Source: an uncultured Chloroflexia bacterium (lineage in GTDB: Bacteria; Chloroflexota; Anaerolineae; JAAYZQ01). Taken from it: a DNA stretch of 64,000 nucleotides. This document shows, piece after piece, positions 1,578-62,648 of the stretch (position 1 is its first letter; each line of letters opens with the position of its first letter). The position numbers and the translations under genes were made by a program. The notes beneath the pieces are model-generated. The model made no database searches. It saw nothing but the letters and a program-made list of their open reading frames with translations, and was not told the origin of the DNA. Location: positions 64,001 through 128,000 of the forward strand of contig CAVOXA010000010.1 in NCBI GenBank assembly GCA_963700285.1, in the 5' to 3' direction.

Positions 1578-2564
1578 TTAGTACCTCTCCAAGATCGGGC
1601 TTATGGGCATTGATGCTGCCGGTCCCGCTGATATAAGCCCGGCCATCTCCGCAGCGATCCGCACCGTCTGCAGGTGGACCTCTACCGTGTCCTGTACCCT
1701 GCGGCCGTAGCCACCGGCCATCACGATGGCAACTGGCAGGGCGGCATGGCGGCACATCGAGAGCACCAAACGATCTCGTTCCGCCAGACCAGCCTTGGTC
1801 AAGGCCAATCGCCCCAAAAGATCGCCTTCATGGGGATCGGCGCCGGCCAGATAGATGGCCAGCCGTCGGCCTTGAGCGTTCGAACCGGAGGAGTAGGTAA
1901 AGGCTTGGCCCAGGGCGCACCGCACCCCGGGCACCAGGGCTTGCAGGTACGCCGCATCCCCGGTACCGTCATCCAGCCCAATGTCCAGATCGCTCTGCTC
2001 CTTGAACAGCGGAAAGTTATTCTCGTTGTGGATGGAAAAAGAAAAGATGGTGGGGTCGCCGGTGACAATCGATGCCGTACCGTTCCCCTGATGGACGTCA
2101 CAATCCAGGACCACGATCTGTTCAACGCGGCTCTCAACCTGCATGGTACGGGCAGCGATAACGGCGTCGTTAAAGAGGCAGTATCCCTGGCCGCGATCGC
2201 GGAAAGCGTGGTGAGTGCCGCCGGACAGGCTGACGGCGATGCCGTCAGAGAGAGCCGCCCGGCAGGCCGCAATGGTCCCGCCGGCTGACCGTCGCGCCCT
2301 TACCACCAACTCTGGCGACCAGGGCAGGCCGATACGCCGGATCTCCTTGGGTGTGAGATCCCCCGCCTCCACCCGCGCCAAATAGTCCGCATCGTGGGCA
2401 AGCAGGATCTGCTCGTCAGTGGCCTCCTCAGGCACGATGAGGTCGTCCGCCGAGACCAGGCGCGCAGCGACGACAGCTTCCCGCAGCAGGCCATACTTTT
2501 GGCTGGGAAAGCGGTGCCCTTGGGGCAGCGGAAATTGGAATTGATCGGTATAGAAGACTCTCAC
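1578..2564 (-). CDS. Histone deacetylase family protein (class IV/HDAC11-like)
   Basis: [27 protein letters not shown] motifs. Confidence 0.9.
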
Positions 2565-2604
2565 GCTGGCCAGCCTTGTGAAGGCTCACAGCTTTCACGA
2601 GGTT

Positions 2605-3693
2605 CTAGCGGACCTTGCCCCGGCCCTGAATGGGCCATACGACTTCCACGATGCCATCCCGTATGCCAACCAACTGGTCGTGCAGGCAGACAGTCACATC
2701 TCCATAACCTACGACGAAATCCAGGGTGTCGCCAACTTTTATCTCTGAATTGGGCGCTGCCAGCACGAGCGTGCCATGCTCGGCCGACATGGAAGTAGAC
2801 TCAACGCCGGTAAGGCCCACAGCTTGCGGGGTGGCATGCCAGGTGGGCAGCGTCTTGAAACCAGCGTCCACGATGATACGTTCGGGAACCGGCCGGCTGG
2901 TAACCAGGGTACGGACGAACAAGGCAGGTTTCGTTTCCACCCCCCAGCGCTGGCTGGCCACATCGCCAAAGATGGCGCCCCCGGCCTGGATCTCGGTGAT
3001 ACCTGGTTGGAAGGCGGTAACGTAAAAGGTACCGGTCCCGCCGGCGCTGACGATATTCACCGGCAAGCCGGCCGCCCGGCAGCGCTCGGCGCTGTCCACG
3101 AGCAGCCCGACGGCCTCCTCGATCACGGGCTTGCGCCCCTCCAGTGTAGGTTCGCCCCGAGCATGACCCTCCCAGGCCATGAGCCCCTCGTACCGCAGGC
3201 CTGGGGTGTCGTACACGAGGCGGGACAGTTCCAGGGCCGGCAGGCCAGGGGCGACGCCGGCGCGATGCATGCCGACCTCCACCTCCACCAAAACACCTAT
3301 CTCCACACCCTTGGCCCTGGCCGCGGCACCCAGCTCGGCGACGTTGGATGGGTTGTCGACGGCCACTTTCACGTCAGCATGGCGGCGGAGGTTGGCCAGG
3401 CGGGCCGCCTTCGTCGGGCCCACAATCTGGTTGGCAATGAGAATATCGGTGATGCCGGCAGCAGCCATCACCTCCGCTTCGGCCAGCTTTGCGCAGGTGA
3501 CGCCGATGGCGCTGGCGGCTATCGCCTGGTGAGCGATGGCTGGCACCTTAATGCCCTTGGTGTGAGGGCGCCAAGACACTCCCGCCGCCTGAAAGTAACC
3601 TGCCAAATAGGCGATATTACTCTCCAGGACGTCCAAGTCCACCCAGAGTACAGGCGTATCCAAATCAGATATTCTGCAGTCGATTTCGGTCAT
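2605..3693 (-). CDS. DSD1-family PLP-dependent enzyme (D-threonine aldolase / D-serine dehydratase-like)
   Basis: LDTP..VDLD, RPHTK (PLP lysine), GGTGT, VDAGFK, SAEHG. Confidence 0.85.
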   Translation of the reverse strand: MTEIDCRISDLDTPVLWVDLDVLESNIAYLAGYFQAAGVSWRPHTKGIKVPAIAHQAIAASAIGVTCAKLAEAEVMAAAGITDILIANQIVGPTKAARLANLRRHADVKVAVDNPSNVAELGAAARAKGVEIGVLVEVEVGMHRAGVAPGLPALELSRLVYDTPGLRYEGLMAWEGHARGEPTLEGRKPVIEEAVGLLVDSAERCRAAGLPVNIVSAGGTGTFYVTAFQPGITEIQAGGAIFGDVASQRWGVETKPALFVRTLVTSRPVPERIIVDAGFKTLPTWHATPQAVGLTGVESTSMSAEHGTLVLAAPNSEIKVGDTLDFVVGYGDVTVCLHDQLVGIRDGIVEVVWPIQGRGKVR

Positions 3694-3909
3694 GGGGTTT
3701 GCCTCGCTTGAGAATAGGGTTTTTCAGTCGTGGTTGCCATCTGGTCAACACCGCCGGAGGCGCGTAACGCTGTACGATATGTCTGTTGGGCCCCCTGCCT
3801 CTCTCCTACCTGGCCACCCCATTATGCATCAAAAAGACGAGATCGACAAGCGCACGCTGAGCCGGGGAGGAAACAGGAGTCGGTGTTCTTGCTCGCATCG
3901 CCTCCATCT

Positions 3910-3938
3910 TTGATGCACCACTGGAGCCGTGGTATAAT
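3910..3938 (+). promoter_or_regulatory. Sigma70-type promoter upstream of rnhA
   Basis: TTGATG (3910-3915), 17 bp, TATAAT (3933-3938) with TG extended -10. Confidence 0.6.
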
Positions 3939-3961
3939 GGCTGCCAGCGAGGAAATCTGGC

Positions 3962-4942
3962 ATGGACCAACCCCAACTGGCTTCCGAACCCTTGAGGGAC
4001 GACCCATCTCTCAAGGTGGTTGTCTACACCGATGGTGGCTGTGACCCCAACCCCGGCCCGGGTGGTTGGGGGGCGATCATCCACTGGCACGATCGCGAAT
4101 GGGTGCTCAGCGGCAACGATCCTGCTACCACAAACAATCGCATGGAGATCCAGGCGGCAGCCGCGGCCCTGGCGCTGCTCCAGGGGATGCTGGGTCACTG
4201 CCAGGTGCAGATCTACACCGATTCGCAGTACTTGCGCCAGGGCATCACGGAATGGATCGATGGCTGGGTAGGCCGCGGCTGGCGTACCAACAACAGCGAA
4301 CCAGTCAAGAACCAAGACCTGTGGCGCCTGCTGCACCACCTGACCCAAGCGCACGATGTGTCCTGGCACTGGCTCAAGGGGCATGCCGGCCATCCCCTCA
4401 ACGAACGGGCTGACCGGCTGGCCAGCGAGGCACTGAAGGCGCTCCAGCGAGGTCCTGGCGCACAAAGCGTCCATCAGCCTGGCACCGAGAACCGAGCCAG
4501 TGTCGAGATCTATGTTAAAGCATCCTGTCGCGGCGCACAGGGCCCTGGTGGCTGGGGTGCTGTACTGCGCACCGGCGAGCACGCCAGGACCCTCACCGGC
4601 CAGGAACCCTCCACGACGGCCAACGCAATGCTAATCCGCGGCGCGACTGGGGCACTATTGGCGTTGAACCGCCCCTGCCGGGTGGCCCTCTATTCCGACG
4701 CCAAGTACCTGATTCAAGGGGCATCGCAGTGGGTCAAAGGCTGGCAGGCGCACGGTTGGCGGACCCGTGATGGCAAGCCGGTGGCCAACCAGGGCGAGTG
4801 GCAGGCGTTATTGGAGGCGGCCCGTCCCCACAACGTCACCTGGCTGCTGGCCCAGGGGGACGCCATCCCTAACGACCTGGAGCGGGCCGGCGAACTGGCT
4901 AGCCAGGCAGCGACATTGCAGAAAGCAGACGGGGAGATGTAA
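3962..4942 (+). CDS. rnhA: Ribonuclease HI with a second, degenerate RNase H domain
   Basis: Domain 1: YTDGGC.PNPGPGGW, TTNNRMEI, YTDSQY, KGHAGH..NERAD. Domain 2 repeats GPGGWGA and YSDAKY..QG..W..GW...GW. Confidence 0.9.
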   Translation: MDQPQLASEPLRDDPSLKVVVYTDGGCDPNPGPGGWGAIIHWHDREWVLSGNDPATTNNRMEIQAAAAALALLQGMLGHCQVQIYTDSQYLRQGITEWIDGWVGRGWRTNNSEPVKNQDLWRLLHHLTQAHDVSWHWLKGHAGHPLNERADRLASEALKALQRGPGAQSVHQPGTENRASVEIYVKASCRGAQGPGGWGAVLRTGEHARTLTGQEPSTTANAMLIRGATGALLALNRPCRVALYSDAKYLIQGASQWVKGWQAHGWRTRDGKPVANQGEWQALLEAARPHNVTWLLAQGDAIPNDLERAGELASQAATLQKADGEM

Positions 4943-53857: not shown

Positions 53858-53883
53858 GTTTGTGCAAAAGAAACGACCCAAGC

Positions 53884-53913
53884 AGGGCTGCCCCTTGCGG
53901 GGGCAGCCCTTTT
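53884..53913 (+). terminator. GC-rich hairpin with short T tail
   Basis: AGGGCTGCCCC-TTGCG-GGGGCAGCCCT-TTT. Confidence 0.6.
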
Positions 53914-53958
53914 CCTTCGCTCATCGTGGCGGAAGGTTCTGAACACAAGGACGACACC

Positions 53959-54705
53959 ATGGCAGAAGAATTGACAAGCGAGTTGGACCTGAACGAGGAA
54001 AGCCTCTGCCCCGAATGCGGCGCAGCCATGGATGAAGGCGACATGGTCTGCCCCCAGTGCGGGGCTGAATTTGGCTACTATTGTCCCGAGTGTGACGAGG
54101 AGGTTCCCGCCGACGCCTGCGTCTGTCCCCACTGCGGCGCAGAGATGGATGAGGGCTTTGAAAATGAGGGTGAATCCGAGCCGGAGGGAGAGCGAGCAGC
54201 TAACGGTACGAACTGCGGTGAGTCCATAGATAACGAGGACAAAAAGTGCCCCGAATGCGGCGCAGTCATGGATGAAGGCGATACAGTCTGCCCCCAGTGC
54301 GGGGCTGAATTTGGCTACTATTGCCCCGAGTGTGACGAGGAGGTTCCCGCGGACGCCTTCATCTGTCCCCACTGCGGTGCAGAGATGGATGAGGGCTTTG
54401 AAGATGAGGAGGAAGACGCGGAACATGGGGGTGAGTCCAATCCGGAGGGGGAGCGAGCGGCTTTCTGTGCGAATTGCGGTGAGCCCATAGAAAAAGAGGA
54501 CAAAGAGTGCCCCGCCTGCGGCGTGGATTTGTGTCCCGATTGCGGAAGCCCGCTGGAAGAGGACGACGAGGTCTGCCCAGAATGCGGCGCCGAGTTCGCG
54601 TTTTCCTGTCCAGACTGTGGTGAGGATCTCCCGGCCAACGCAGTGATCTGTTCCCACTGCGGCTATAACTTCGTGGACGAGGAGGAGGAGGAGGAGGATG
54701 ACTGA
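53959..54705 (+). CDS. Acidic poly-zinc-ribbon (DZR-like) protein
   Basis: 14 CxxC motifs plus one degenerate (GTNC) in 248 aa; very Asp/Glu-rich; AAGGA RBS. Confidence 0.8.
   Translation: MAEELTSELDLNEESLCPECGAAMDEGDMVCPQCGAEFGYYCPECDEEVPADACVCPHCGAEMDEGFENEGESEPEGERAANGTNCGESIDNEDKKCPECGAVMDEGDTVCPQCGAEFGYYCPECDEEVPADAFICPHCGAEMDEGFEDEEEDAEHGGESNPEGERAAFCANCGEPIEKEDKECPACGVDLCPDCGSPLEEDDEVCPECGAEFAFSCPDCGEDLPANAVICSHCGYNFVDEEEEEEDD
54007..54515 (+). repeat. Near-identical intragenic tandem duplication (240-nt unit)
   Basis: TGCCCCGAATGCGGCGCAG... starts at 54007 and 54247; second copy has a 21-nt insertion. Confidence 0.85.
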
Positions 54706-55540
54706 GGGCGGCATCGACCTCATCCTCCTGAAGCCTGACCCGGTCCTTGAGGGCCCCGACACCACCCGCTGCCCGGCCTGCGGCACCGGCGTCTATCTCA
54801 ACGATGGCATCTGCTCAGCCTGCGGCCAGGTCTATTGTCCGGGATGCGGGCATTCCCTCGAAGATGATACGTTTGAGGACGAGGGCCTCGAAGACGAGGG
54901 CCTCGAGGACGAGGGCCTCGAGGACGACGATACCTGCCCGAACTGCGGCCTGGCGCTGAGCTTTCCCTGTCCTGGCTGTGACTTTCCGGTTGCCAGCGGG
55001 GCCAAGCGCTGCCCCGAGTGCGGCGTCCTTTTTGTACTGCGCTGCCCCGCCTGCGATGTACGCATCCTTGATGGAGCCGAGGCATGTCCCGATTGTGGCC
55101 AAGCCTTCGCGCTGGAAAGGCGCACGCTGGCAACTATTTTTGCCTCGGAGCCTGGGCTAGTCTTGCTCAAGTGTCCGGCCTGCATGGTCAAGTTCGGCAG
55201 CGAGATGGGAGCCTGTCCCGGGTGTAACCAACGCGTCTGCCCCGAGTGCTATCTACTGTTAAAGGACGAGGAACTCGATTGTCCCCACTGCGGCTGCCAT
55301 GCCGCCCGGCCCTGCCCTGCCTGCAAAGCCAGCGTAGGTTTGGGGTCCCCAGAGTGTCCTGCTTGCGGCCAATCCCTCTGTCCAGCTTGTGGCGCCGGAG
55401 TAGGGGAGAACGACACAAACTGCCCCAGGTGCGGCACAGAACTGGAGTTGTGTTGCCCCCAATGTGGCGCCGACCTGGAGCCTCAGATGATGCACTGCCC
55501 CGCATGCGGCCTTAGCTTTGGCCCAGACGACCCGGACTGA
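54698..55540 (+). CDS. Poly-zinc-ribbon (DZR-like) protein
   Basis: 18 CxxC motifs in 280 aa; start overlaps upstream gene end; (EDEGL)x3 15-nt repeat at 54875-54919. Confidence 0.8.
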   Translation: MTEGGIDLILLKPDPVLEGPDTTRCPACGTGVYLNDGICSACGQVYCPGCGHSLEDDTFEDEGLEDEGLEDEGLEDDDTCPNCGLALSFPCPGCDFPVASGAKRCPECGVLFVLRCPACDVRILDGAEACPDCGQAFALERRTLATIFASEPGLVLLKCPACMVKFGSEMGACPGCNQRVCPECYLLLKDEELDCPHCGCHAARPCPACKASVGLGSPECPACGQSLCPACGAGVGENDTNCPRCGTELELCCPQCGADLEPQMMHCPACGLSFGPDDPD

Positions 55541-55588: not shown

Positions 55589-56740
55589 TTACCACGACCG
55601 CCTGAACTCGACACGCCAGGCATAGTGGGAGATGCTCACGCACTCGCCCTTGTCATAGAGTTCCTGGCATCGCTCCCTGGTAATATCAGTCTCGCAGCAT
55701 GCACAATAACCTGCCGCCCACAGATCTTCAAGGGGAGGCGGGTCGTGGGTGGGCAGATTGCGGGTCAAGTCGGTCTCACACGCCCCTCCCTCGCCACTGG
55801 CGATGCAAAGCTGTCCCCCATCCATCCCGCTGAACTCGACCTCACCGGGCCCCCAGAACGGATCATCTCCTTTGTGGCCTGATACCTGGTACAGACCCGT
55901 ATATCGCTCGTGCACCCAGACACCCGGGATCTGGTTCCCCGCCGCATCCAGAACGGTAACGCGGATCAGTTTGAGACCGTCGCTGCAGGTTTGACCTTCC
56001 TGTCCAGGACCAACCAACTGGGCCGTATAGGTCCATTTCACGGCTGCCGTCGGCGATGGCTGCGCAGTCGGCGTTGGCTCGGGTTCCACGGTATTGGTCG
56101 GTTGGGGCCTCGGCGTGTCCGACGGCACAGCGGTTGCCGTCGGCAGGGCAGGCGTGTCTGAGGGTGCCATCGTCGGCGCAGGTGAAAGCGTCGCTGTGAC
56201 CGTTGGCGTGGGTGGGATGGTCGTCGGCTCTTTGGTCGTCGGCTCTTTGGTTGTCGGCTCGGGTGTGGCCGATGGCACAGCCGTTGGCGCCGGTACGTCT
56301 GTAGGCGTCGAGCTCGGTTGGGGCAGAGCCGTACCGGTGGGGGGCAGAGTCGGCGTAGCCAAATAGGCCAACGATTGTGGGCTTTCCACACCCAGTGCCT
56401 GGCCCAGCACGGCGAGTGCACGAATATCCGCCTCGTCGCGCCCCTCAGTGATGTAGCGGTCAATCAAGATCGCAAGCTGTTGATCGATATCTGACGCGTC
56501 CAGCCGCGCCAATCGTGCCTGGGCCCTCTCCAGATCGTGGTCAGAACTGTAGGAAGCCGCCACCAGGACGACATAGACTTCCTGGGACTCTGCTCCCAGG
56601 CTGACCAGGGCCGCATCGGATCGGCACGGCGCCTTGATGCCTCGACTAAACAAAAAGCCCAGCCCAAGCCCAATCATCAAAGCCAGGCCAGTACAAAGCG
56701 CCCCGATGAGAATGGTCCGATCGGTCCGTGATTCTTTCAT
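55589..56740 (-). CDS. Membrane-anchored protein with Pro/Thr-rich linker and Cys-containing C-terminal domain
   Basis: N-terminal TM, long PT-rich stalk with EPTTK repeats, C-terminal domain with several cysteines. Confidence 0.7.
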   Translation of the reverse strand: MKESRTDRTILIGALCTGLALMIGLGLGFLFSRGIKAPCRSDAALVSLGAESQEVYVVLVAASYSSDHDLERAQARLARLDASDIDQQLAILIDRYITEGRDEADIRALAVLGQALGVESPQSLAYLATPTLPPTGTALPQPSSTPTDVPAPTAVPSATPEPTTKEPTTKEPTTIPPTPTVTATLSPAPTMAPSDTPALPTATAVPSDTPRPQPTNTVEPEPTPTAQPSPTAAVKWTYTAQLVGPGQEGQTCSDGLKLIRVTVLDAAGNQIPGVWVHERYTGLYQVSGHKGDDPFWGPGEVEFSGMDGGQLCIASGEGGACETDLTRNLPTHDPPPLEDLWAAGYCACCETDITRERCQELYDKGECVSISHYAWRVEFRRSW

Positions 56741-57128
56741 CGTCCTATACCGCTCCTTGATCTAAACTCGGATACCAGTATAGGGGAGAATGCGCTGTTG
56801 GTCAATTCCAGCGGACACCCCATCTGGGTGGGTGAGGGACCCCAGCTATTGCTAGATCTCCGCACAGGGTGAGAAAACCTACAGCAACCGCCAGTATTTG
56901 TATGCTACAATTCAACAGATGGGACCGCGCACGATCCGGGTACAGTCACAGGTAGCACAGCAGAACCATCTCGTAATCCCAACCTATCTCTTGGGATAGA
57001 CTTGCAGTAATTTGCAGAGAATCGTCGAGGGTGGGGTAAGGAACCTATGCTCCGGGGCGTCCAAACTACTGTATGGGGCCGCAGACCTGATGTTTGCCGG
57101 CATGCTCATCAAGGAGAGGAGATACGAA

Positions 57129-57815
57129 ATGGGAGAATCTGCAGAATCCGTACCCATCAGACCCTTCGCCTGGGAGGAGCCCCTGCGCCGGATCGCGTTG
57201 GTGATCGCTCGCCTGGGCCTGGCCTTTCTTTTCTTCTCGCAGCTCTTTTGGAAGCTTCCCCCCCAGTTCGGCTGTGGCTCTGAATTCGACTTTTCCAGCG
57301 AGGGACCCGATGGCGCGCTGATCCGCAAGAGTGGCCTGTGTGACTGGGTCGGTCTTGAATCTGTCTATGCTGACCGCGAACGGACTTTCTTTGTGATTCC
57401 CAGCTCTGATGGCGGTACCCTTTTCTCCATTGGCCTGGATCCACTGGTCAAGCTCAATGGAGTCTTTGTCAGCCATGTCGTGCAACCAACCTTTGGCGCC
57501 TTCGGCTGGGCGATCTTTCTTGCCGAAGCCTTCGTCGCGGCCACGCTCTTCCTGGGTCTTCTCAGTCGTGGGGGCGCGCTCGTTGCACTCTTGCTGTCGC
57601 TCCAACTGATGCTGGGTCTGGCCGGCGCCTGGGATCCCGCGACCCATCTCAACGAGTGGGAATGGAGCTACCACCTGATGGTCCTGCTGTCGCTCGTCCT
57701 GCTTGGTATTACTCCCGGCCGCATCTTTGGGCTGGATGCACTGCTAAGACCCCGTCAGGCTGCCAGCGCCGCCCGCGGCCGATGGCTGGCCAAACTGTAC
57801 CTAGCTCTCAGCTAG
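57129..57815 (+). CDS. DoxX/TQO-DoxD-like membrane protein
   Basis: R..L...F...FWKLPP, E......L.LGL.SR.GA, EW.WSY, GR.FGLD; GAGGAG RBS. Confidence 0.7.
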   Translation: MGESAESVPIRPFAWEEPLRRIALVIARLGLAFLFFSQLFWKLPPQFGCGSEFDFSSEGPDGALIRKSGLCDWVGLESVYADRERTFFVIPSSDGGTLFSIGLDPLVKLNGVFVSHVVQPTFGAFGWAIFLAEAFVAATLFLGLLSRGGALVALLLSLQLMLGLAGAWDPATHLNEWEWSYHLMVLLSLVLLGITPGRIFGLDALLRPRQAASAARGRWLAKLYLALS

Positions 57816-57872
57816 CACCACCACTTGGGTAGCCCTGTAACGCTGCCCCACCCTGGTACATAGGAGACGTAA

Positions 57873-58715
57873 ATGGTTCTTTCCAGAACGCTTGCAGGAC
57901 CCGCAACAGACACTGCTGGCAGCCCGACCGGCGAAGGGACACCGTTCGTTTGGAAACTGTGGGTTTATACCAACTATGATTGCAACCTGAGTTGTACCTA
58001 TTGCGTGGCCGAGTCCAGCCCGCGTGCTGCGCGTAGAGGACTGGACCTGGAGACCGTACAGCGGCTCGTGGACGAGGCCATTGCGCTGGGCTTTGGCCAC
58101 CTGCTCTTTACCGGCGGCGAGCCCTTCATCCTGGACGATATCTATGATATGCTGGCCTACGCCTCAGCCCGGGCTCAGACAACCGTCCTGACAAATGCCA
58201 TGCTGCTGCACGGCAGTCGCTTGGAACGACTGGCAGCCATCGCCAGCGACAGGCTGACGGTTCAGGTAAGCCTGGATGGCGCCCGGCCCGAGCACCACGA
58301 CGTCTATCGCGGCGCGGGTACCTGGGCCAAGACCATGGAGGGCATCCAGCGCCTGCAGGTGCGCGGACTGCACCTGCGTCTGTCTACGACCGAGACGCCG
58401 GCCAATAGCGACTACCTGGCGGAATTGTACGCACTCCGTCGTTCCCTGGGTATCCCCGAAAAGGATCACGTTATCCGGCCGCTGGCCCACCGGGGCTTTG
58501 CCCGGGAAGGGACGGAGGTAACCGTCGACAACTTGATGCCCGAGGTTACCGTCACTGCGGATGGCGTCTTCTGGCATCCGCTGGCCTCGCCCAGTAGCTG
58601 TGACATGCAGGTGAGTAACAGGATCTTTCCCCTGGCCACGGCTGTGGACTGTATCCAACTGCAACTCGACCAGTTGCTGCGCGCCAAGCACGGGCTGCCA
58701 CAGGCCATCACTTGA
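57873..58715 (+). CDS. Radical SAM protein (possibly extended to 58721 as a Sec-Gly selenoprotein)
   Basis: CNLSCTYC, TGGEPF, LTNA, VSLDG...HD..RG.GTW; no SPASM cysteine array; ends ACT TGA GGC TGA. Confidence 0.88.
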   Translation: MVLSRTLAGPATDTAGSPTGEGTPFVWKLWVYTNYDCNLSCTYCVAESSPRAARRGLDLETVQRLVDEAIALGFGHLLFTGGEPFILDDIYDMLAYASARAQTTVLTNAMLLHGSRLERLAAIASDRLTVQVSLDGARPEHHDVYRGAGTWAKTMEGIQRLQVRGLHLRLSTTETPANSDYLAELYALRRSLGIPEKDHVIRPLAHRGFAREGTEVTVDNLMPEVTVTADGVFWHPLASPSSCDMQVSNRIFPLATAVDCIQLQLDQLLRAKHGLPQAIT

Positions 58716-58851
58716 GGCTGAGCCGCGGGCTTCTGGAGGAAGCCGAGAACAGTACGCATCCTGGACGGCGTCCAGGATGGCAAACCTGCTGCACATCCAG
58801 GATTTTCTTTGACGGTGGGATCACGTTATTAGATCTAGGAGGGGGGTTACG

Positions 58852-59361
58852 TTGACCAAGACCATGCGCGAGGCGCTCAGCCGCCAGGCGCCGCTATGGC
58901 CCATCGCCCTGAGCCGCGTGCTCATCGGAGTGCTGTGGTTGGGGACGCTGCGCTGGAAGCTACCACCGGACTTTGCCCCCGCATCGGGACGGGGGTTATT
59001 TGACTGGCTGCTATTGGAGGCCCAGTACCCGGCCTTTGGTTTCTATGGCGCTTTTGTCGAGTCGATCGTGATTCCCAACTTTTCCCTGTTCGCCTGGCTG
59101 GTCTTTTTGAGCGAGCTAGGCGTGGGGCTGCTGCTGGTGACGGGCACGTGGACGCGCCTGGCAGGCGCCCTGGGCCTTCTCATGTCCCTCAACCTGGGGA
59201 TCGGACTGCTGGAGGTTCCGGGCGAATGGCCCTGGTCCTACATCATGATGGCCATGTGGCACGGGCTGTTCGTGGTTGCGGCCGCAGGGCGCGTGCTGGG
59301 CGTCGATGCCTGGCTGCGCCGCCGGTTGCCCACCAAGTCCCTGTGGCTCGTCTTCACTTAG
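58852..59361 (+). CDS. DoxX/TQO-DoxD-like membrane protein (paralog of 57129..57815)
   Basis: RWKLPP, E..VG..L..G..TRL, EWPWSY, GR.LGVD; AGGAGG RBS. Confidence 0.75.
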   Translation: MTKTMREALSRQAPLWPIALSRVLIGVLWLGTLRWKLPPDFAPASGRGLFDWLLLEAQYPAFGFYGAFVESIVIPNFSLFAWLVFLSELGVGLLLVTGTWTRLAGALGLLMSLNLGIGLLEVPGEWPWSYIMMAMWHGLFVVAAAGRVLGVDAWLRRRLPTKSLWLVFT

Positions 59362-59409
59362 CCGAGTTCCCTTGATGGGCAAAGGTTTCGCAGCTCACGA
59401 TCTGTCTCC

Positions 59410-59736
59410 ATGGTAGCTGTCGCCGGTCTTGCCGTCACTGCCGCCCTGACTGAGGTTGGCTTCCTGGCCCCGGTACGGACGTTTCTGCAAACGCCCAGTA
59501 TTATGTCCCGGCCGGATGGACAGGGCCCGACCTTGTCTATGCCCCTGGGCCTGCCCAACCCCTGGCTCATCATAATACCTGTGGTACTCCTGGCCGGCTA
59601 TTGGCTGCTGCGCAGCCCCCACAATTGCATGCAGGCCCTGGAAAGCCTGCCGCGCTGGGCTGAGGGCCAGGGACACACCGTCGTAAACCGCCAGGACCTG
59701 GGCGATGGCGTGTGGCAGATCGTGATACGAAAGTAA
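59410..59736 (+). pseudogene. Apparent fusion remnant: membrane segment (YeeE/YedE-like end) joined to the C-terminal half of a TusA/SirA-family sulfur carrier
   Basis: C-terminus ALESLPRWAEGQGHTV......GVWQIVIRK fits the TusA/YeeD second half, but the CPxP motif is absent. YeeE call for the N-part is tentative. Confidence 0.5.
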
Positions 59737-59740
59737 CAAG

Positions 59741-61189
59741 ATGCCTATCATTGAGATTCTTTACGCGGTCTGTGCAATCCTGCTCGGCCTGTACGGCCTG
59801 AACAACCTGATATTGACCGGGATCTACCTGCGGCACCGCAACGATCCTGTGCCAGAGCCCCCGGCGCCAGCAGACTGGCCCCTGGTCACAGTTCAACTCC
59901 CCATTTACAATGAACTGCACACCGCCGAGCGGCTGCTGACCACCGTGGCGGCCCTGGACTATCCGCGCCACCGGCTGGAGATCCAGGTACTGGACGATTC
60001 CACCGATGCCACCCGTGAACTGGCGGCCCGCGTCGTCAAAGGTCTCCGAAACCAGGGCATTGACATCGTCCATGTTGTACGGCAGGATCGGTCGGGCTTC
60101 AAGGCGGGGGCGCTAGCGGCTGGCATGGACCGGGCCAGGGGCGAACTGATCGCCATCTTTGACGCCGACTTTATGCCGGCAAGCGACTTTTTGCGGCGGG
60201 TGGTGCCCCACTTTGCCGATCCTGCCGTAGGCTGCGTCCAGACCCGTTGGGGCCACGTCAACCGCGACTATTCGGCTTTTACCCAGACCCAGGCCCTGGG
60301 CGTCGATGGGCATTTTGTCGTCCAACAGGCGGCGCGGGGCCAGGCCGGGCTGTTTCTCAACTTTAACGGTACGGCTGGCGCTTGGCGGCGGGCCTGTATT
60401 GAGGATGCCGGCGGCTGGCAGGGAGATACGCTCACCGAGGACCTGGATCTCAGCTACCGCGCCCAATTGCGCGGCTGGCGGATCGCCTATCTACCAGAGG
60501 TCGTCGTTCCCGCAGAGTTACCGGCCCAGATCAGCGCCTTCAAACGGCAGCAGGCCCGCTGGGCCCAGGGCAGCATCGAGACAGCAAGAAAGCTCATAGG
60601 CCCCCTGCTCCGTTCCGGCCAGCCCCGGCATGTCAAGTTGGAGGGCGTTCTGCACTTGACCGGGTACCTGGTCCACCCCCTCATGCTGTCGATCATCTTG
60701 CTCACCTTCCCCATGAGCTTCTCCCGCAGTTGGGTTGTGCTGGGCATCCCCTGGCTGATGGTCACCGCTGCGGGTCCTCCCCTGTTATACATTGTGGCCC
60801 AGACCGGTGGTGGCACAGAATCACGCCGTCGCCTACGATTCCTGCCCCTATTGGTCATGTTGGGCATGGGCTTGAGCCTGAGCAATACGGGGGCCGTGCT
60901 ACGGGGGGCGCTGGGAATCACCCGAAGCTTCCAGCGCACGCCCAAGTTTGACCTGCAGCAGTCAGCGGATGCCTGGGTCGGCAGCGCCTATGCCCTGAGG
61001 GGAGACTGGCTGGTCCTGGGTGAGGCGGCGCTGGCCATCATGGTCCTGCTGATGTTTGCCATGCCCAACATCCGTTGGACCTTTGTGCCCTGGTTGCTCC
61101 TGTACGCCGGCGGCTTTGGCTATGTGGCCGCCATTAATCTCCACCAGACCCACCAATTGCGCCGATGGCTGGCCAAGCAGCCCAGATGA
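59741..61189 (+). CDS. Processive GT2 glycosyltransferase (cellulose synthase-like/CslA type)
   Basis: VQLPIYNE, DDSTD, KAGAL, FDAD, TEDLD, QQARW. Confidence 0.9.
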   Translation: MPIIEILYAVCAILLGLYGLNNLILTGIYLRHRNDPVPEPPAPADWPLVTVQLPIYNELHTAERLLTTVAALDYPRHRLEIQVLDDSTDATRELAARVVKGLRNQGIDIVHVVRQDRSGFKAGALAAGMDRARGELIAIFDADFMPASDFLRRVVPHFADPAVGCVQTRWGHVNRDYSAFTQTQALGVDGHFVVQQAARGQAGLFLNFNGTAGAWRRACIEDAGGWQGDTLTEDLDLSYRAQLRGWRIAYLPEVVVPAELPAQISAFKRQQARWAQGSIETARKLIGPLLRSGQPRHVKLEGVLHLTGYLVHPLMLSIILLTFPMSFSRSWVVLGIPWLMVTAAGPPLLYIVAQTGGGTESRRRLRFLPLLVMLGMGLSLSNTGAVLRGALGITRSFQRTPKFDLQQSADAWVGSAYALRGDWLVLGEAALAIMVLLMFAMPNIRWTFVPWLLLYAGGFGYVAAINLHQTHQLRRWLAKQPR

Positions 61190-62648
61190 GCACCAGGTAC
61201 AAGGGTACGTATTCCACAAGTCGAACCGCGTCATACTCGCGCGGGTTGGCCGGGTCCTGGTAGGTCAGGTAGGACAGGGCCACAACGGCGGAAAAATAGA
61301 TGCCCGGCAGGAGAAAGCGGCTGATTCTGCTGTCTTCCGAGCGCGTGGGAGTGAGAAAAGGCAACAGAGGGATGAGCAAGGTCACGTACCAGGGATGGAC
61401 CGTCGTCGCCAGGAGCAGATAGGCAGCCAGGGGGACAATAGCCAGTCTCAGGAGGGCCAAATTGCCATCACAGCGGCGGCTCCAGCGCCAGACGCCCGCC
61501 AGCACCAAACCCAGCATGCCCAGCGAGAGCAGCTTCGCAGTCCGGATCGGCCCAGGCCCGACAGCCTCCAGCGGTACGGCCCCTGGCGTTGGGTAGCCAG
61601 AGATCGCCACCTCCAGCCAATGATACAGCCCGCCATTATAGTTCCAATAGGTGCTATAAATGCGGATTGCACCAAATAGCCCTGTACCATCCAGCGGGCC
61701 CAGCAGGCCCCATCCTCCGCCCAGGGCAAAAGCAGCGCTGATCGCCACGACCAGCCCACCGTAAACCAGCACATAGCGCCAACCCCAACGCCGGCCTACC
61801 ACCGGCAGCAGCAGTGCCGGCAGAACTTTTGTCAGCGTCGCCGCAGCCAGCGCCACCACCGATAGCAGGCGCGAGTGCGCGGATACAAAGGGCCGGCGGT
61901 CCCCTGTGGCCGGCACGACGAGAGCCCACAGCGCGGCCATCATCAGGCAGATCATCAGCGCATCCACGACATGGGCGCCATGGGCGAACTCTACGACGAC
62001 CAGAGGGTTCCACAGGTAGATGAGCACCCGCGTGCCTGGCAGCCCGAGCCGGCGCAGCAGATCCATCACCAACGCACCCGTCAGCAGGTCCAGGAGTACG
62101 GCAGTGACCTGGAAAGCCAGGGCACTGCCGGGGACCAGGCGGTACACGGCGGCGAAAAGCGCCTGGGCTGCCGGCAAGTACGGCGAGGCCATCCAGTTAT
62201 TGTTTACTAGGGTCCGTTGGGGCGAATCAAGGGCATCGAGCAGCGGAGAATTCACCGGCAGCGCGTAGGGGCTTATGCCGGCGTTGGCCAGCCGGCCATC
62301 CCAGATGTAGCGCCAGATATCGTCGGACAGCGTGGGCATGGTGAACAACAACGTGGTACGAAAGACCAGCCCCAGGCCCCAGATGAGAAAGAGCGCCCTC
62401 CGCCGCTCCGGCTGTCGCAGCGACCACCAGACGGCCAGCCCGTAGAACACAAAAGCAGCCGCATACAGCCCCAGAAAGGGCACCGTCCGCTGCCGTAGGT
62501 TCCCCTGGGTGACCATGCCAGCGAAGCACACTTCGACCGCCAGACCCAGCCCGGCAAGGATCCACGGGGCCCGGATCCCCCTAGCGCCTCGGAGATCCTC
62601 TACCTGTAGAGGGAGGCCACCCCGGGGCCCTTCAGATACCTGAAGCAT
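61134..62648 (-). CDS. Polytopic GT-C (GT87-like) glycosyltransferase
   Basis: SDDIWRYIWDG, NPL...E...AH, HPWY motifs; many TMs. Confidence 0.75.
   Translation of the reverse strand: MLQVSEGPRGGLPLQVEDLRGARGIRAPWILAGLGLAVEVCFAGMVTQGNLRQRTVPFLGLYAAAFVFYGLAVWWSLRQPERRRALFLIWGLGLVFRTTLLFTMPTLSDDIWRYIWDGRLANAGISPYALPVNSPLLDALDSPQRTLVNNNWMASPYLPAAQALFAAVYRLVPGSALAFQVTAVLLDLLTGALVMDLLRRLGLPGTRVLIYLWNPLVVVEFAHGAHVVDALMICLMMAALWALVVPATGDRRPFVSAHSRLLSVVALAAATLTKVLPALLLPVVGRRWGWRYVLVYGGLVVAISAAFALGGGWGLLGPLDGTGLFGAIRIYSTYWNYNGGLYHWLEVAISGYPTPGAVPLEAVGPGPIRTAKLLSLGMLGLVLAGVWRWSRRCDGNLALLRLAIVPLAAYLLLATTVHPWYVTLLIPLLPFLTPTRSEDSRISRFLLPGIYFSAVVALSYLTYQDPANPREYDAVRLVEYVPLYLVLIWAAWPAIGAIGGSGGD

Follow-up and report, generated by a model that had tools for sequence, protein, structure and literature searches.

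A radical SAM gene of the window (the whole stretch of 64,000 nucleotides analysed here) is best explained as encoding a selenoprotein that ends in Thr-Sec-Gly, whose tail selenium is likely catalytic and would carry a group of the sulfur, selenium or arsenic type to the adenosyl radical; we regard this overall explanation as highly probable. Judging from the sequence comparisons, the first TGA of the gene end almost certainly encodes Sec: SelB would bind the predicted SECIS and insert Sec281, and the protein would be two residues longer than annotated. The gene very probably represents a further family of radical SAM selenoproteins, characterised by a single Sec in the penultimate position and by a SECIS in the 3'-untranslated region; this family appears to be widespread and is absent from the current published inventory. 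The features of the locus are listed in Table 1.

Table 1 Features of the radical SAM locus, in coordinates of the window
Feature	Position	Strand	Basis
DoxX/DoxD-like membrane protein, upstream, likely in the same operon	57129..57815	+	PF04173; DoxX near 41/97 family loci
AGGAG ribosome-binding site, 6 nt upstream of ATG	57862..57866	+	Sequence
Rv1681-like radical SAM gene; 282 aa with TGA as Sec (end A-I-T-U-G)	57873..58721	+	Profile/Pfam matches; AF2 model pLDDT 92.3
CX3CX2C (C37, C41, C44), predicted [4Fe-4S]/SAM ligands	57981..58004	+	Invariant, 109/109 aligned cores
In-frame TGA, predicted Sec281	58713..58715	+	Aligned with Cys of 30 orthologues and with NF049973 position 325/326
Gly282 codon and true stop	58716..58721	+	Gly in 60/79 TGA forms, all four GGN codons
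Predicted bacterial SECIS, entirely beyond the true stop; G of the loop at +20	58728..58744	+	Covariation; bSECIS model fit
Second DoxX/DoxD-like membrane protein	58852..59361	+	PF04173/PF07681
Remnant of a YeeE(TsuA)-TusA fusion gene, two internal deletions relative to L001	59410..59736	+	Comparison with L001
GT2 glycosyltransferase	59741..61189	+	Profile/Pfam matches
Membrane protein, GT-C-like	61134..62648	-	Clusters with GT87-like (GT-C) proteins beside 13/97 family loci

The C-terminus across the family

Read to its first stop, the radical SAM ORF (57873-58715, forward strand) closes ATC ACT TGA, followed by GGC (58716-58718) and another TGA (58719-58721). The hairpin GGCTTC-TGGAG-GAAGCC starts at +13 from the first TGA and its loop G corresponds to position 58735. 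The initial annotation had placed all of these elements exactly. Short-read contigs from three other public runs span the motif, each at a depth of about 2: one of them (X1, 58592-58742) has a single difference, at 58638, and the other two (X3, 58650-58800; X9, 58685-58835, from an RNA library used as a sequence check) have none. Since these contigs match, the motif does not originate from long-read errors. TGA is the commonest stop codon of the source genome (2679/5333 long ORFs) and, among its 2678 TGA-ended ORFs of at least 250 codons, 86 have a stop two codons further on and 13 have the arrangement TGA-GGN-stop, which is combined with the hairpin in the radical SAM gene only. A 23-nt near-perfect palindrome (58757-58779) lies directly 3' of the predicted SECIS; it is shared with locus L001, has one copy in the genome and is possibly an operator or an RNA processing hairpin.

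The C-terminus falls at the same alignment column in 119 of the best 120 homologues out of 5203 (the protein itself included). For the family analysis, 157 loci including that of the window were pooled, and 112 full-length loci were left once 45 had been removed because they were incomplete, duplicated, unpublished or frameshifted, or belonged to more distant radical SAMs. TGA followed by one or two codons and a stop is found in 79/112, Cys followed by one or two residues in 30/112 and another ending in 3/112, counts that still contain some near-identical loci and in which kin are not independent. L029 is frameshifted, with Cys in the next frame; L040 is a Cys form (FRCG) with an extension; L063 has TGA-Gly and a longer extension, and keeps the hairpin. 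The non-Cys forms thus have TGA in 80/80 cases and never TAA or TAG, and the Cys forms amount to 32 when L029 and L040 are counted. The position is occupied by either Cys or TGA, as was to be expected from the original reading of the UGA as Sec.

The second stop of the 79 TGA forms varies (39 TGA, 20 TAG, 17 TAA and three forms with one more codon), with 22 changes on the tree, and so do the true stops of the Cys forms (19 TGA, 9 TAG, 2 TAA). The residue after the TGA is mostly Gly (60 of the 79 forms, followed by 12 Ala, 4 Ser, 2 Val and 1 Thr), the Gly being written with all four GGN codons and with 24 synonymous changes on the tree; after the Cys of the Cys forms, Ala or Gly predominate. 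The residue preceding the TGA is more diverse (T 42, R 19, Q 9, K 6, H 2, V 1) and the one at -2 is mostly Phe. L011, L019 and L071 end in U-S-K-stop. Haft & Gwadz propose at least ten examples as a criterion for a new selenoprotein family, and here the 79 loci come from Chloroflexota, Actinomycetota, Myxococcota, Nitrospinota and unassigned contigs. Their further criteria concern the truncated members, of which 100% have TGA aligned to a conserved Cys, and similarity past the Sec at a consistent length, where Gly/Ala/Ser-stop corresponds to C-A/G/S-stop over the one or two residues that can be compared. A quick, unrooted LG+G4 tree, computed from 109 cores after removal of the tails, shows at least five switches between Sec and Cys. 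L060 (FTCG) and L091 (FRCG) are nested within starred TGA clades and the hairpin is lost in both, and the monophyly of the Cys forms is rejected (p-AU 5.7e-7, in a test made after the tree had been inspected).

The hairpin and the selenocysteine machinery

A hairpin rule devised after inspection of the family (stem of at least 5 bp, with a G between +17 and +24 in the loop) is satisfied by 72/77 TGA forms with enough sequence, by 3/29 Cys forms and by 105/2678 background TGA-ended ORFs. In a 65-row MAFFT alignment, compensatory changes affect 6/6 stem pairs and 87.4% of the cells are paired, versus 68.5% after shuffling (0/500) and 44-58% in slid controls; RNAalifold returns the same stem unprompted. 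The consensus of the family is a 6-bp stem with a C-G-[T/G]-N-N loop whose G is located at +18 to +23 from the TGA. As these elements lie in non-coding sequence they are free of codon constraints, and the 70+ copies constitute a clean set for a bacterial SECIS consensus. The bSECIS model, as given in the available text of PMC13188914, has a loop of 3-9 nt with a G within its first two positions, a stem of 4-16 bp, a spacing of 16-37 nt and an MFE <= -7.5; the hairpin of the window agrees with it (6-7 bp stem, GGA or TGGAG loop, spacing of 18-19 nt, -9.9 kcal/mol). Its folding stability compared with shuffles is not significant (z = -0.22 and -0.60), and an Rfam scan of 56500-60000 returned no SECIS family and two chance matches. 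The family hairpin is not a terminator, because a T-run follows it in just 3/72 cases; a terminator scan did not call the hairpin of the window.

The comparison with the known selenoproteins of the source genome, which had been suggested at the outset, turned out favorably. FdhA (C1:68252) has a hairpin in the same register as the radical SAM gene, and two GrdB/PrdB-like genes (C22:134598 and C5:248560) have an in-frame TGA and hairpins, with the loop G at +19/+20 in all three. Both GrdB/PrdB-like genes share a CGTTG loop with 7 members of the radical SAM family. The hairpins of SelD and of a Grx-like gene fit the register more loosely. These five genes are the ones that were kept from a selenoprotein motif hunt whose output was mostly noise. 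The glutaredoxin-like gene (G000:C1:1070216, reverse strand; T-U-P-Y-C, hairpin G at +24) is likely a selenoprotein gene.

One might consider the first TGA as an ordinary stop with a backup stop behind it; the hairpin would then serve termination or RNA processing, and a protein lacking the tail would work unlike the Cys forms. The databases do annotate the family proteins as ending at the first TGA: in the collection searched, RefSeq WP_220596337.1 and WP_185060956.1 terminate at the TGA column, and the initial annotation was right to expect that such a short tail would be missed. Records from Pseudonocardia eucalypti and from an Oscillochloris strain stop at this column, and among such hosts the DNA tail inspected was that of Ca. 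Oscillochloris fontis (L015). The abundance of TGA stops and the frameshifted selB and selD of the source genome also speak for this explanation. Yet the constancy of TGA in the non-Cys forms while the stops of the Cys forms vary, the conservation of the following codon as an amino acid, the near absence of T-runs and of a terminator call, and the loss of the hairpin where Cys returns make it very improbable. The Sec reading is supported instead by the Cys-X-stop orthologues, the variable second stop and the covarying hairpin that is lost in Cys forms.

The presence of selA, selB, selC and selD in the genome had been put forward as a check of the Sec reading. It holds for selA (579 bits) and selC (tRNA-Sec, C1:887298-887394), both intact; selB and selD are present, as proposed, but frameshifted. 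These frameshifts are likely due to assembly errors, since the assembly is rich in indels (frameshifting ones affect 60/131 orthologous ORFs with respect to G001, among them nine that flank selB) and the selB genes of G001-G003 are unbroken. Apparent pseudogenes in the indel-rich source assembly (G000) warrant caution. Searches of the incomplete genomes G001 and G010 yielded selD in neither of them and, in G010, no selB either. In the family-bearing genomes, selA is over the cut-off in 40/45, and in 34/36 of those with TGA forms, the genomes of L014 and L028 being below it; the 7 published Actinomycetota genomes with TGA forms all exceed it. It is missing from three genomes with Cys forms and present in at least ten of them. 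Since the background is high (231/301 Chloroflexota, 201/301 Actinomycetota), the co-occurrence of selA discriminates the TGA forms weakly. Some locus and selA-background tallies include the unpublished genomes G046, G093, G133 and G165, on which no sequence claim depends.

Another possibility is that the TGA is decoded as Cys or Trp through a change of code or leakiness, to which its alignment with Cys would also correspond. Nevertheless, TGA is a normal stop genome-wide, the only tRNA called with a TCA anticodon is tRNA-Sec and the hairpin follows the published bSECIS model, so that we give almost no credit to this decoding and retain Sec.

Fold, tail residue and gene neighbourhood

The product of the radical SAM gene matches PF04055, its GGE and CX3CX2C motifs are invariant in the family and it is modelled as a partial TIM barrel, as is characteristic of the superfamily. 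Its nearest relatives are from Chloroflexota (Anaerolineae-like). The closest NCBIfam model is NF049973, the family of Rv1681 (also called MoeX), whose name has no "(seleno)" tag. The scores obtained (292.3 / 294.1 bits) fall short of the 380 bits required for the equivalog and, on these scores, the gene is best placed in a sister subfamily outside NF049973. The match spans profile positions 72-313, and reaches 325 of 326 if the TGA is read as Cys; the TGA maps to 325/326, the Cys position of P0207, a member over the cut-off. Profile positions 1-71, an N-terminal TusA-like segment of about 70 residues, are absent from the radical SAM gene. The score against ArsS (TIGR04167) is 47.5 bits for a cut-off of 300, and the absence of the Cys-rich GxxU tail sets the gene apart from that family. 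It was not among the matches of the genome to TrsS (NF045646) at E <= 1e-8 or to the CUAEP family (NF040546) at E <= 1e-5; judging from these profiles, it belongs to none of the ArsS, TrsS and CUAEP-tail families. Some members of the family are fusions: L038, L111 and L137, all Cys forms, have an N-terminal metallophosphoesterase, P0050 an N-terminal DinB domain and P0146 an N-terminal TusA domain.

The AF2 model (133 aligned sequences, TGA as Cys) has a C-terminal helix at 254-270 beyond the barrel. Foldseek searches with this model returned SkfB (TMq 0.70), BlsE (0.64) and EpeE (~0.62), with 11-21% identity among the matches listed, which by the model are generic radical SAM folds. A single-sequence AF2 model was poor (pLDDT 43) and was discarded. 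The ESM Atlas returned only generic radical SAM clusters, and a PDB sequence search found no relative spanning the C-terminal third.

With the TGA translated, the family has a single invariant Cys besides C37, C41 and C44, namely the tail Cys/Sec. It sits 40-51 residues C-terminal to the invariant W233 of the WHP motif, following a helix and a sequence-variable linker of limited length. As no other Cys/Sec outside CX3CX2C is invariant and this one keeps such a distance from WHP, the residue is quite likely needed for catalysis. It could instead bind metal, as the fourth Fe ligand at rest or as part of an auxiliary cluster that a partner protein would complete. In the structural comparison, the best matches are of the SPASM/twitch type, with auxiliary clusters whose cysteines the family does not have: there is no SPASM Pfam match to the gene, and no Cys between the triad and the tail is conserved at >50% in the family alignment, which is at odds with a SPASM/twitch auxiliary cluster. 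As one ligand does not hold such a cluster and there is no further invariant Cys, the chances of this role seem slim.

The Sec could also be real and swing like the tail of animal thioredoxin reductases, an analogy drawn in the initial annotation; a DoxX partner in the membrane would then supply the electrons that it passes to the cluster or the substrate. Its penultimate position before Gly, the variable sequence of the linker within a limited length and the rank of DoxX as the commonest neighbour (41/97 loci) are compatible with this role. Yet no Cys is conserved next to the Sec (-1 is T, R, Q, K, H or V) and no other conserved Cys could serve as its partner, the tail is fairly ordered in the AF2 model (pLDDT 84-85), and there is no flavin/disulfide module. 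The resemblance is thus one of position only, and such an arm is improbable.

The window has the gene order doxX - rSAM - doxX - yeeE/tusA remnant - GT2, with the GT-C-like gene on the opposite strand; the latter has no Pfam or NCBIfam match. Of the sulfur-related neighbours noticed at first, DoxX is confirmed; what had been read as TusA-like is, in this assembly, what deletions have left of a YeeE-TusA fusion. The intact fusion of L001 (7574-8794) has 406 aa and the window lacks ~370 and ~570 nt of it, owing to either real decay or misassembly. At 53860-55540, the window also contains two adjacent acidic multi-zinc-ribbon proteins (~8 and 4+ ribbons), with weak matches, far below the cut-off, to the zinc-ribbon selenoprotein model NF049953.

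Neighbours were counted within ~5-6 kb of 97 loci, many of which are short. After DoxX, the commonest are DUF2064/TIGR04282 (30), GT2 (23 and 6), AsnC-like (23), acyl-CoA dehydrogenase (18), Rv1680-like SBP (15), GT-C and SPASM radical SAM (13 each), methyltransferase (12), Nudix (11), TusA (10), DsrE and DinB (9 each) and MTA phosphorylase (4). Sugar-transfer genes are found in 32/62 loci of at least 6 kb and TusA/DsrE/YeeE/DoxX in 35/62, no neighbour being universal. A partner cluster of the source genome (C10:655982-665422, equivalent to L182:5983-15423) contains GT2, a SPASM radical SAM, a multiheme cytochrome c lipoprotein, an EB_dh-domain protein, DUF2079 and DUF2064, followed by a Nudix gene and a further radical SAM gene that are encoded on the other strand. 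In the same L182, an ORF at 2557-3963 splits a methionyl-tRNA-synthetase-like gene and resembles, on visual inspection, a group II intron reverse transcriptase. Beside the Cys-form gene of L112 (8366-10729) there is a 5'-deoxyadenosine/MTA salvage set made up of MTA phosphorylase, a class II aldolase and MtnA. Neither ArsM nor any other arsenic gene is conserved near the family loci; an arsenic-specific role was considered and is unsupported, as the neighbouring methyltransferase is far below the ArsM cut-offs.

Several chemistries may be envisaged for a catalytic Sec. The epimerase EpeE has a Cys223 that is thought to quench the substrate radical as a hydrogen-atom or electron donor, and the Sec could do the same, for instance in the epimerisation or deoxygenation of a sugar. 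A single invariant Cys/Sec outside the triad and the presence of EpeE structures, C223A mutants included, among the fold matches speak for this role, and the sugar-transfer neighbours would fit it equally well. Nevertheless, this role leaves the recurrent TusA/DsrE/YeeE/DoxX neighbours unexplained, the Cys of EpeE is internal instead of terminal and the fold matches are generic; we therefore see it as unlikely, if conceivable.

The chemistry that we favour, although it is less likely than not, makes the Sec the covalent carrier of a sulfur, selenium or arsenic group attacked by the 5'-deoxyadenosyl radical, feeding a surface-sugar route. It is guided by two precedents, the arsenic chemistry of ArsL/ArsS and the 5-thio-pentose donor of MtxS. 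The neighbours (DoxX, DUF2064, GT2, GT-C and sulfur carriers) suggest that the tail would bring such a group to the adenosyl radical on the way to a modified sugar of the cell surface. Sec281 would hold the heteroatom group, as the Cys tails of arsenic radical SAM enzymes do, and the attack of the radical on it would give a modified sugar precursor. DUF2064, Nudix or MTA-phosphorylase neighbours might process the product, GT2 would load the modified sugar on a lipid carrier, from which GT-C would transfer it to a surface glycoconjugate, and DoxX/TusA/DsrE/YeeE may handle sulfur or redox. Yet ArsL has three cysteines and the radical SAM tail one, no arsenic gene is conserved nearby, no neighbour is universal and, in P0207, the canonical member, the N-terminal domain resembling TusA has no TusA-type Cys before residue 43. 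A broader proposal, in which a single terminal Sec arm would replace an auxiliary Fe-S cluster and take S, Se or As from TusA/DsrE-type carriers to make an undescribed heteroatom sugar on the cell-surface glycans of several phyla, is more doubtful.

Relation to known selenoproteins and pathways

The inventory of PMC13188914 (2026) contains, in its Table 1, 119 prokaryotic selenoprotein families, whose radical SAM entries are ArsS and TrsS; the family described here is absent from that table, and neither NF049973 nor Rv16xx is mentioned in the paper. According to the available part of the Haft & Gwadz preprint (10.1101/2022.07.06.499078), there is also the CUAEP family with its tail Sec, and PGAP was then unable to predict a C-terminal Sec. 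The term "radical SAM" is absent from the accessible main text of BSepDB (PMC13326102). A literature search, most subscription papers being outside it, found no description of the family as selenoproteins. A widespread selenoprotein family thus seems to be systematically shortened in databases, and the expression of an annotated protein would result in the loss of its likely catalytic residue.

TrsS and the CUAEP/CCAEP-tail family are radical SAM selenoproteins too, but the gene studied here has no CU dipeptide and encodes 282 aa versus their 441/468 positions. The accessible text of the same preprint describes SaoC as having its Sec at the terminus and its SECIS beyond a double stop, and SaoC and KCU-star share with our gene a Sec at the very end, the appearance of a double stop and a SECIS 3' of the stop with a G-containing loop. 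They are, however, small unrelated proteins with Cys-Sec-COOH, unlike the lone Sec-Gly/Ala of the radical SAM enzyme. Animal thioredoxin reductases resemble it in their penultimate Sec followed by Gly and in a SECIS outside the coding region, but differ in their vicinal Cys, of which the TGA forms have no equivalent, and in their flavin/disulfide domain; the SECIS of the radical SAM gene is of the bacterial type. The tail of the animal enzyme is Gly-Cys-Sec-Gly.

ArsS and ArsL are alike in being radical SAM enzymes with C-terminal Cys/Sec chemistry. In the available part of the source (10.64898/2026.04.29.721666), As is bound by the cysteines at the C-terminus of ArsL, and ArsS couples an organoarsenical to the adenosyl radical. 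The ArsS/arsenosugar cluster also has TIGR04282/DUF2064 and GT2 neighbours. Contrary to ArsS, the radical SAM gene has neither a Cys-rich domain nor the GxxU motif, its lone Sec is at -2 and no ArsM is conserved nearby. The mycobacterial methylthioxylose (MTX) cluster also contains DUF2064 and MTA phosphorylase and, to our knowledge, MTX needs no radical SAM enzyme, which separates the two systems. The MTX pathway (MtxS/MtxT) nevertheless offers a precedent for a 5-thio-pentose on a lipid donor that is moved by a GT-C, MtxS being, in the accessible part of the source, the glycosyltransferase that makes this donor in the capping pathway (PMC12088412).

The Rv1681 family is the closest system: it has the same core and the same penultimate chalcogen position (292-294 bits, profile 72-325/326), and part of the TGA/Cys family shares its Rv1679-like acyl-CoA dehydrogenase and Rv1680-like SBP neighbours. 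The radical SAM gene differs from it by its score below 380 bits, by the missing TusA-like part of ~70 residues and by having a TGA and a SECIS in place of Cys. Judging from the Cys/Sec pair, the functional residue of the uncharacterised Rv1681 family is in turn probably its penultimate Cys.
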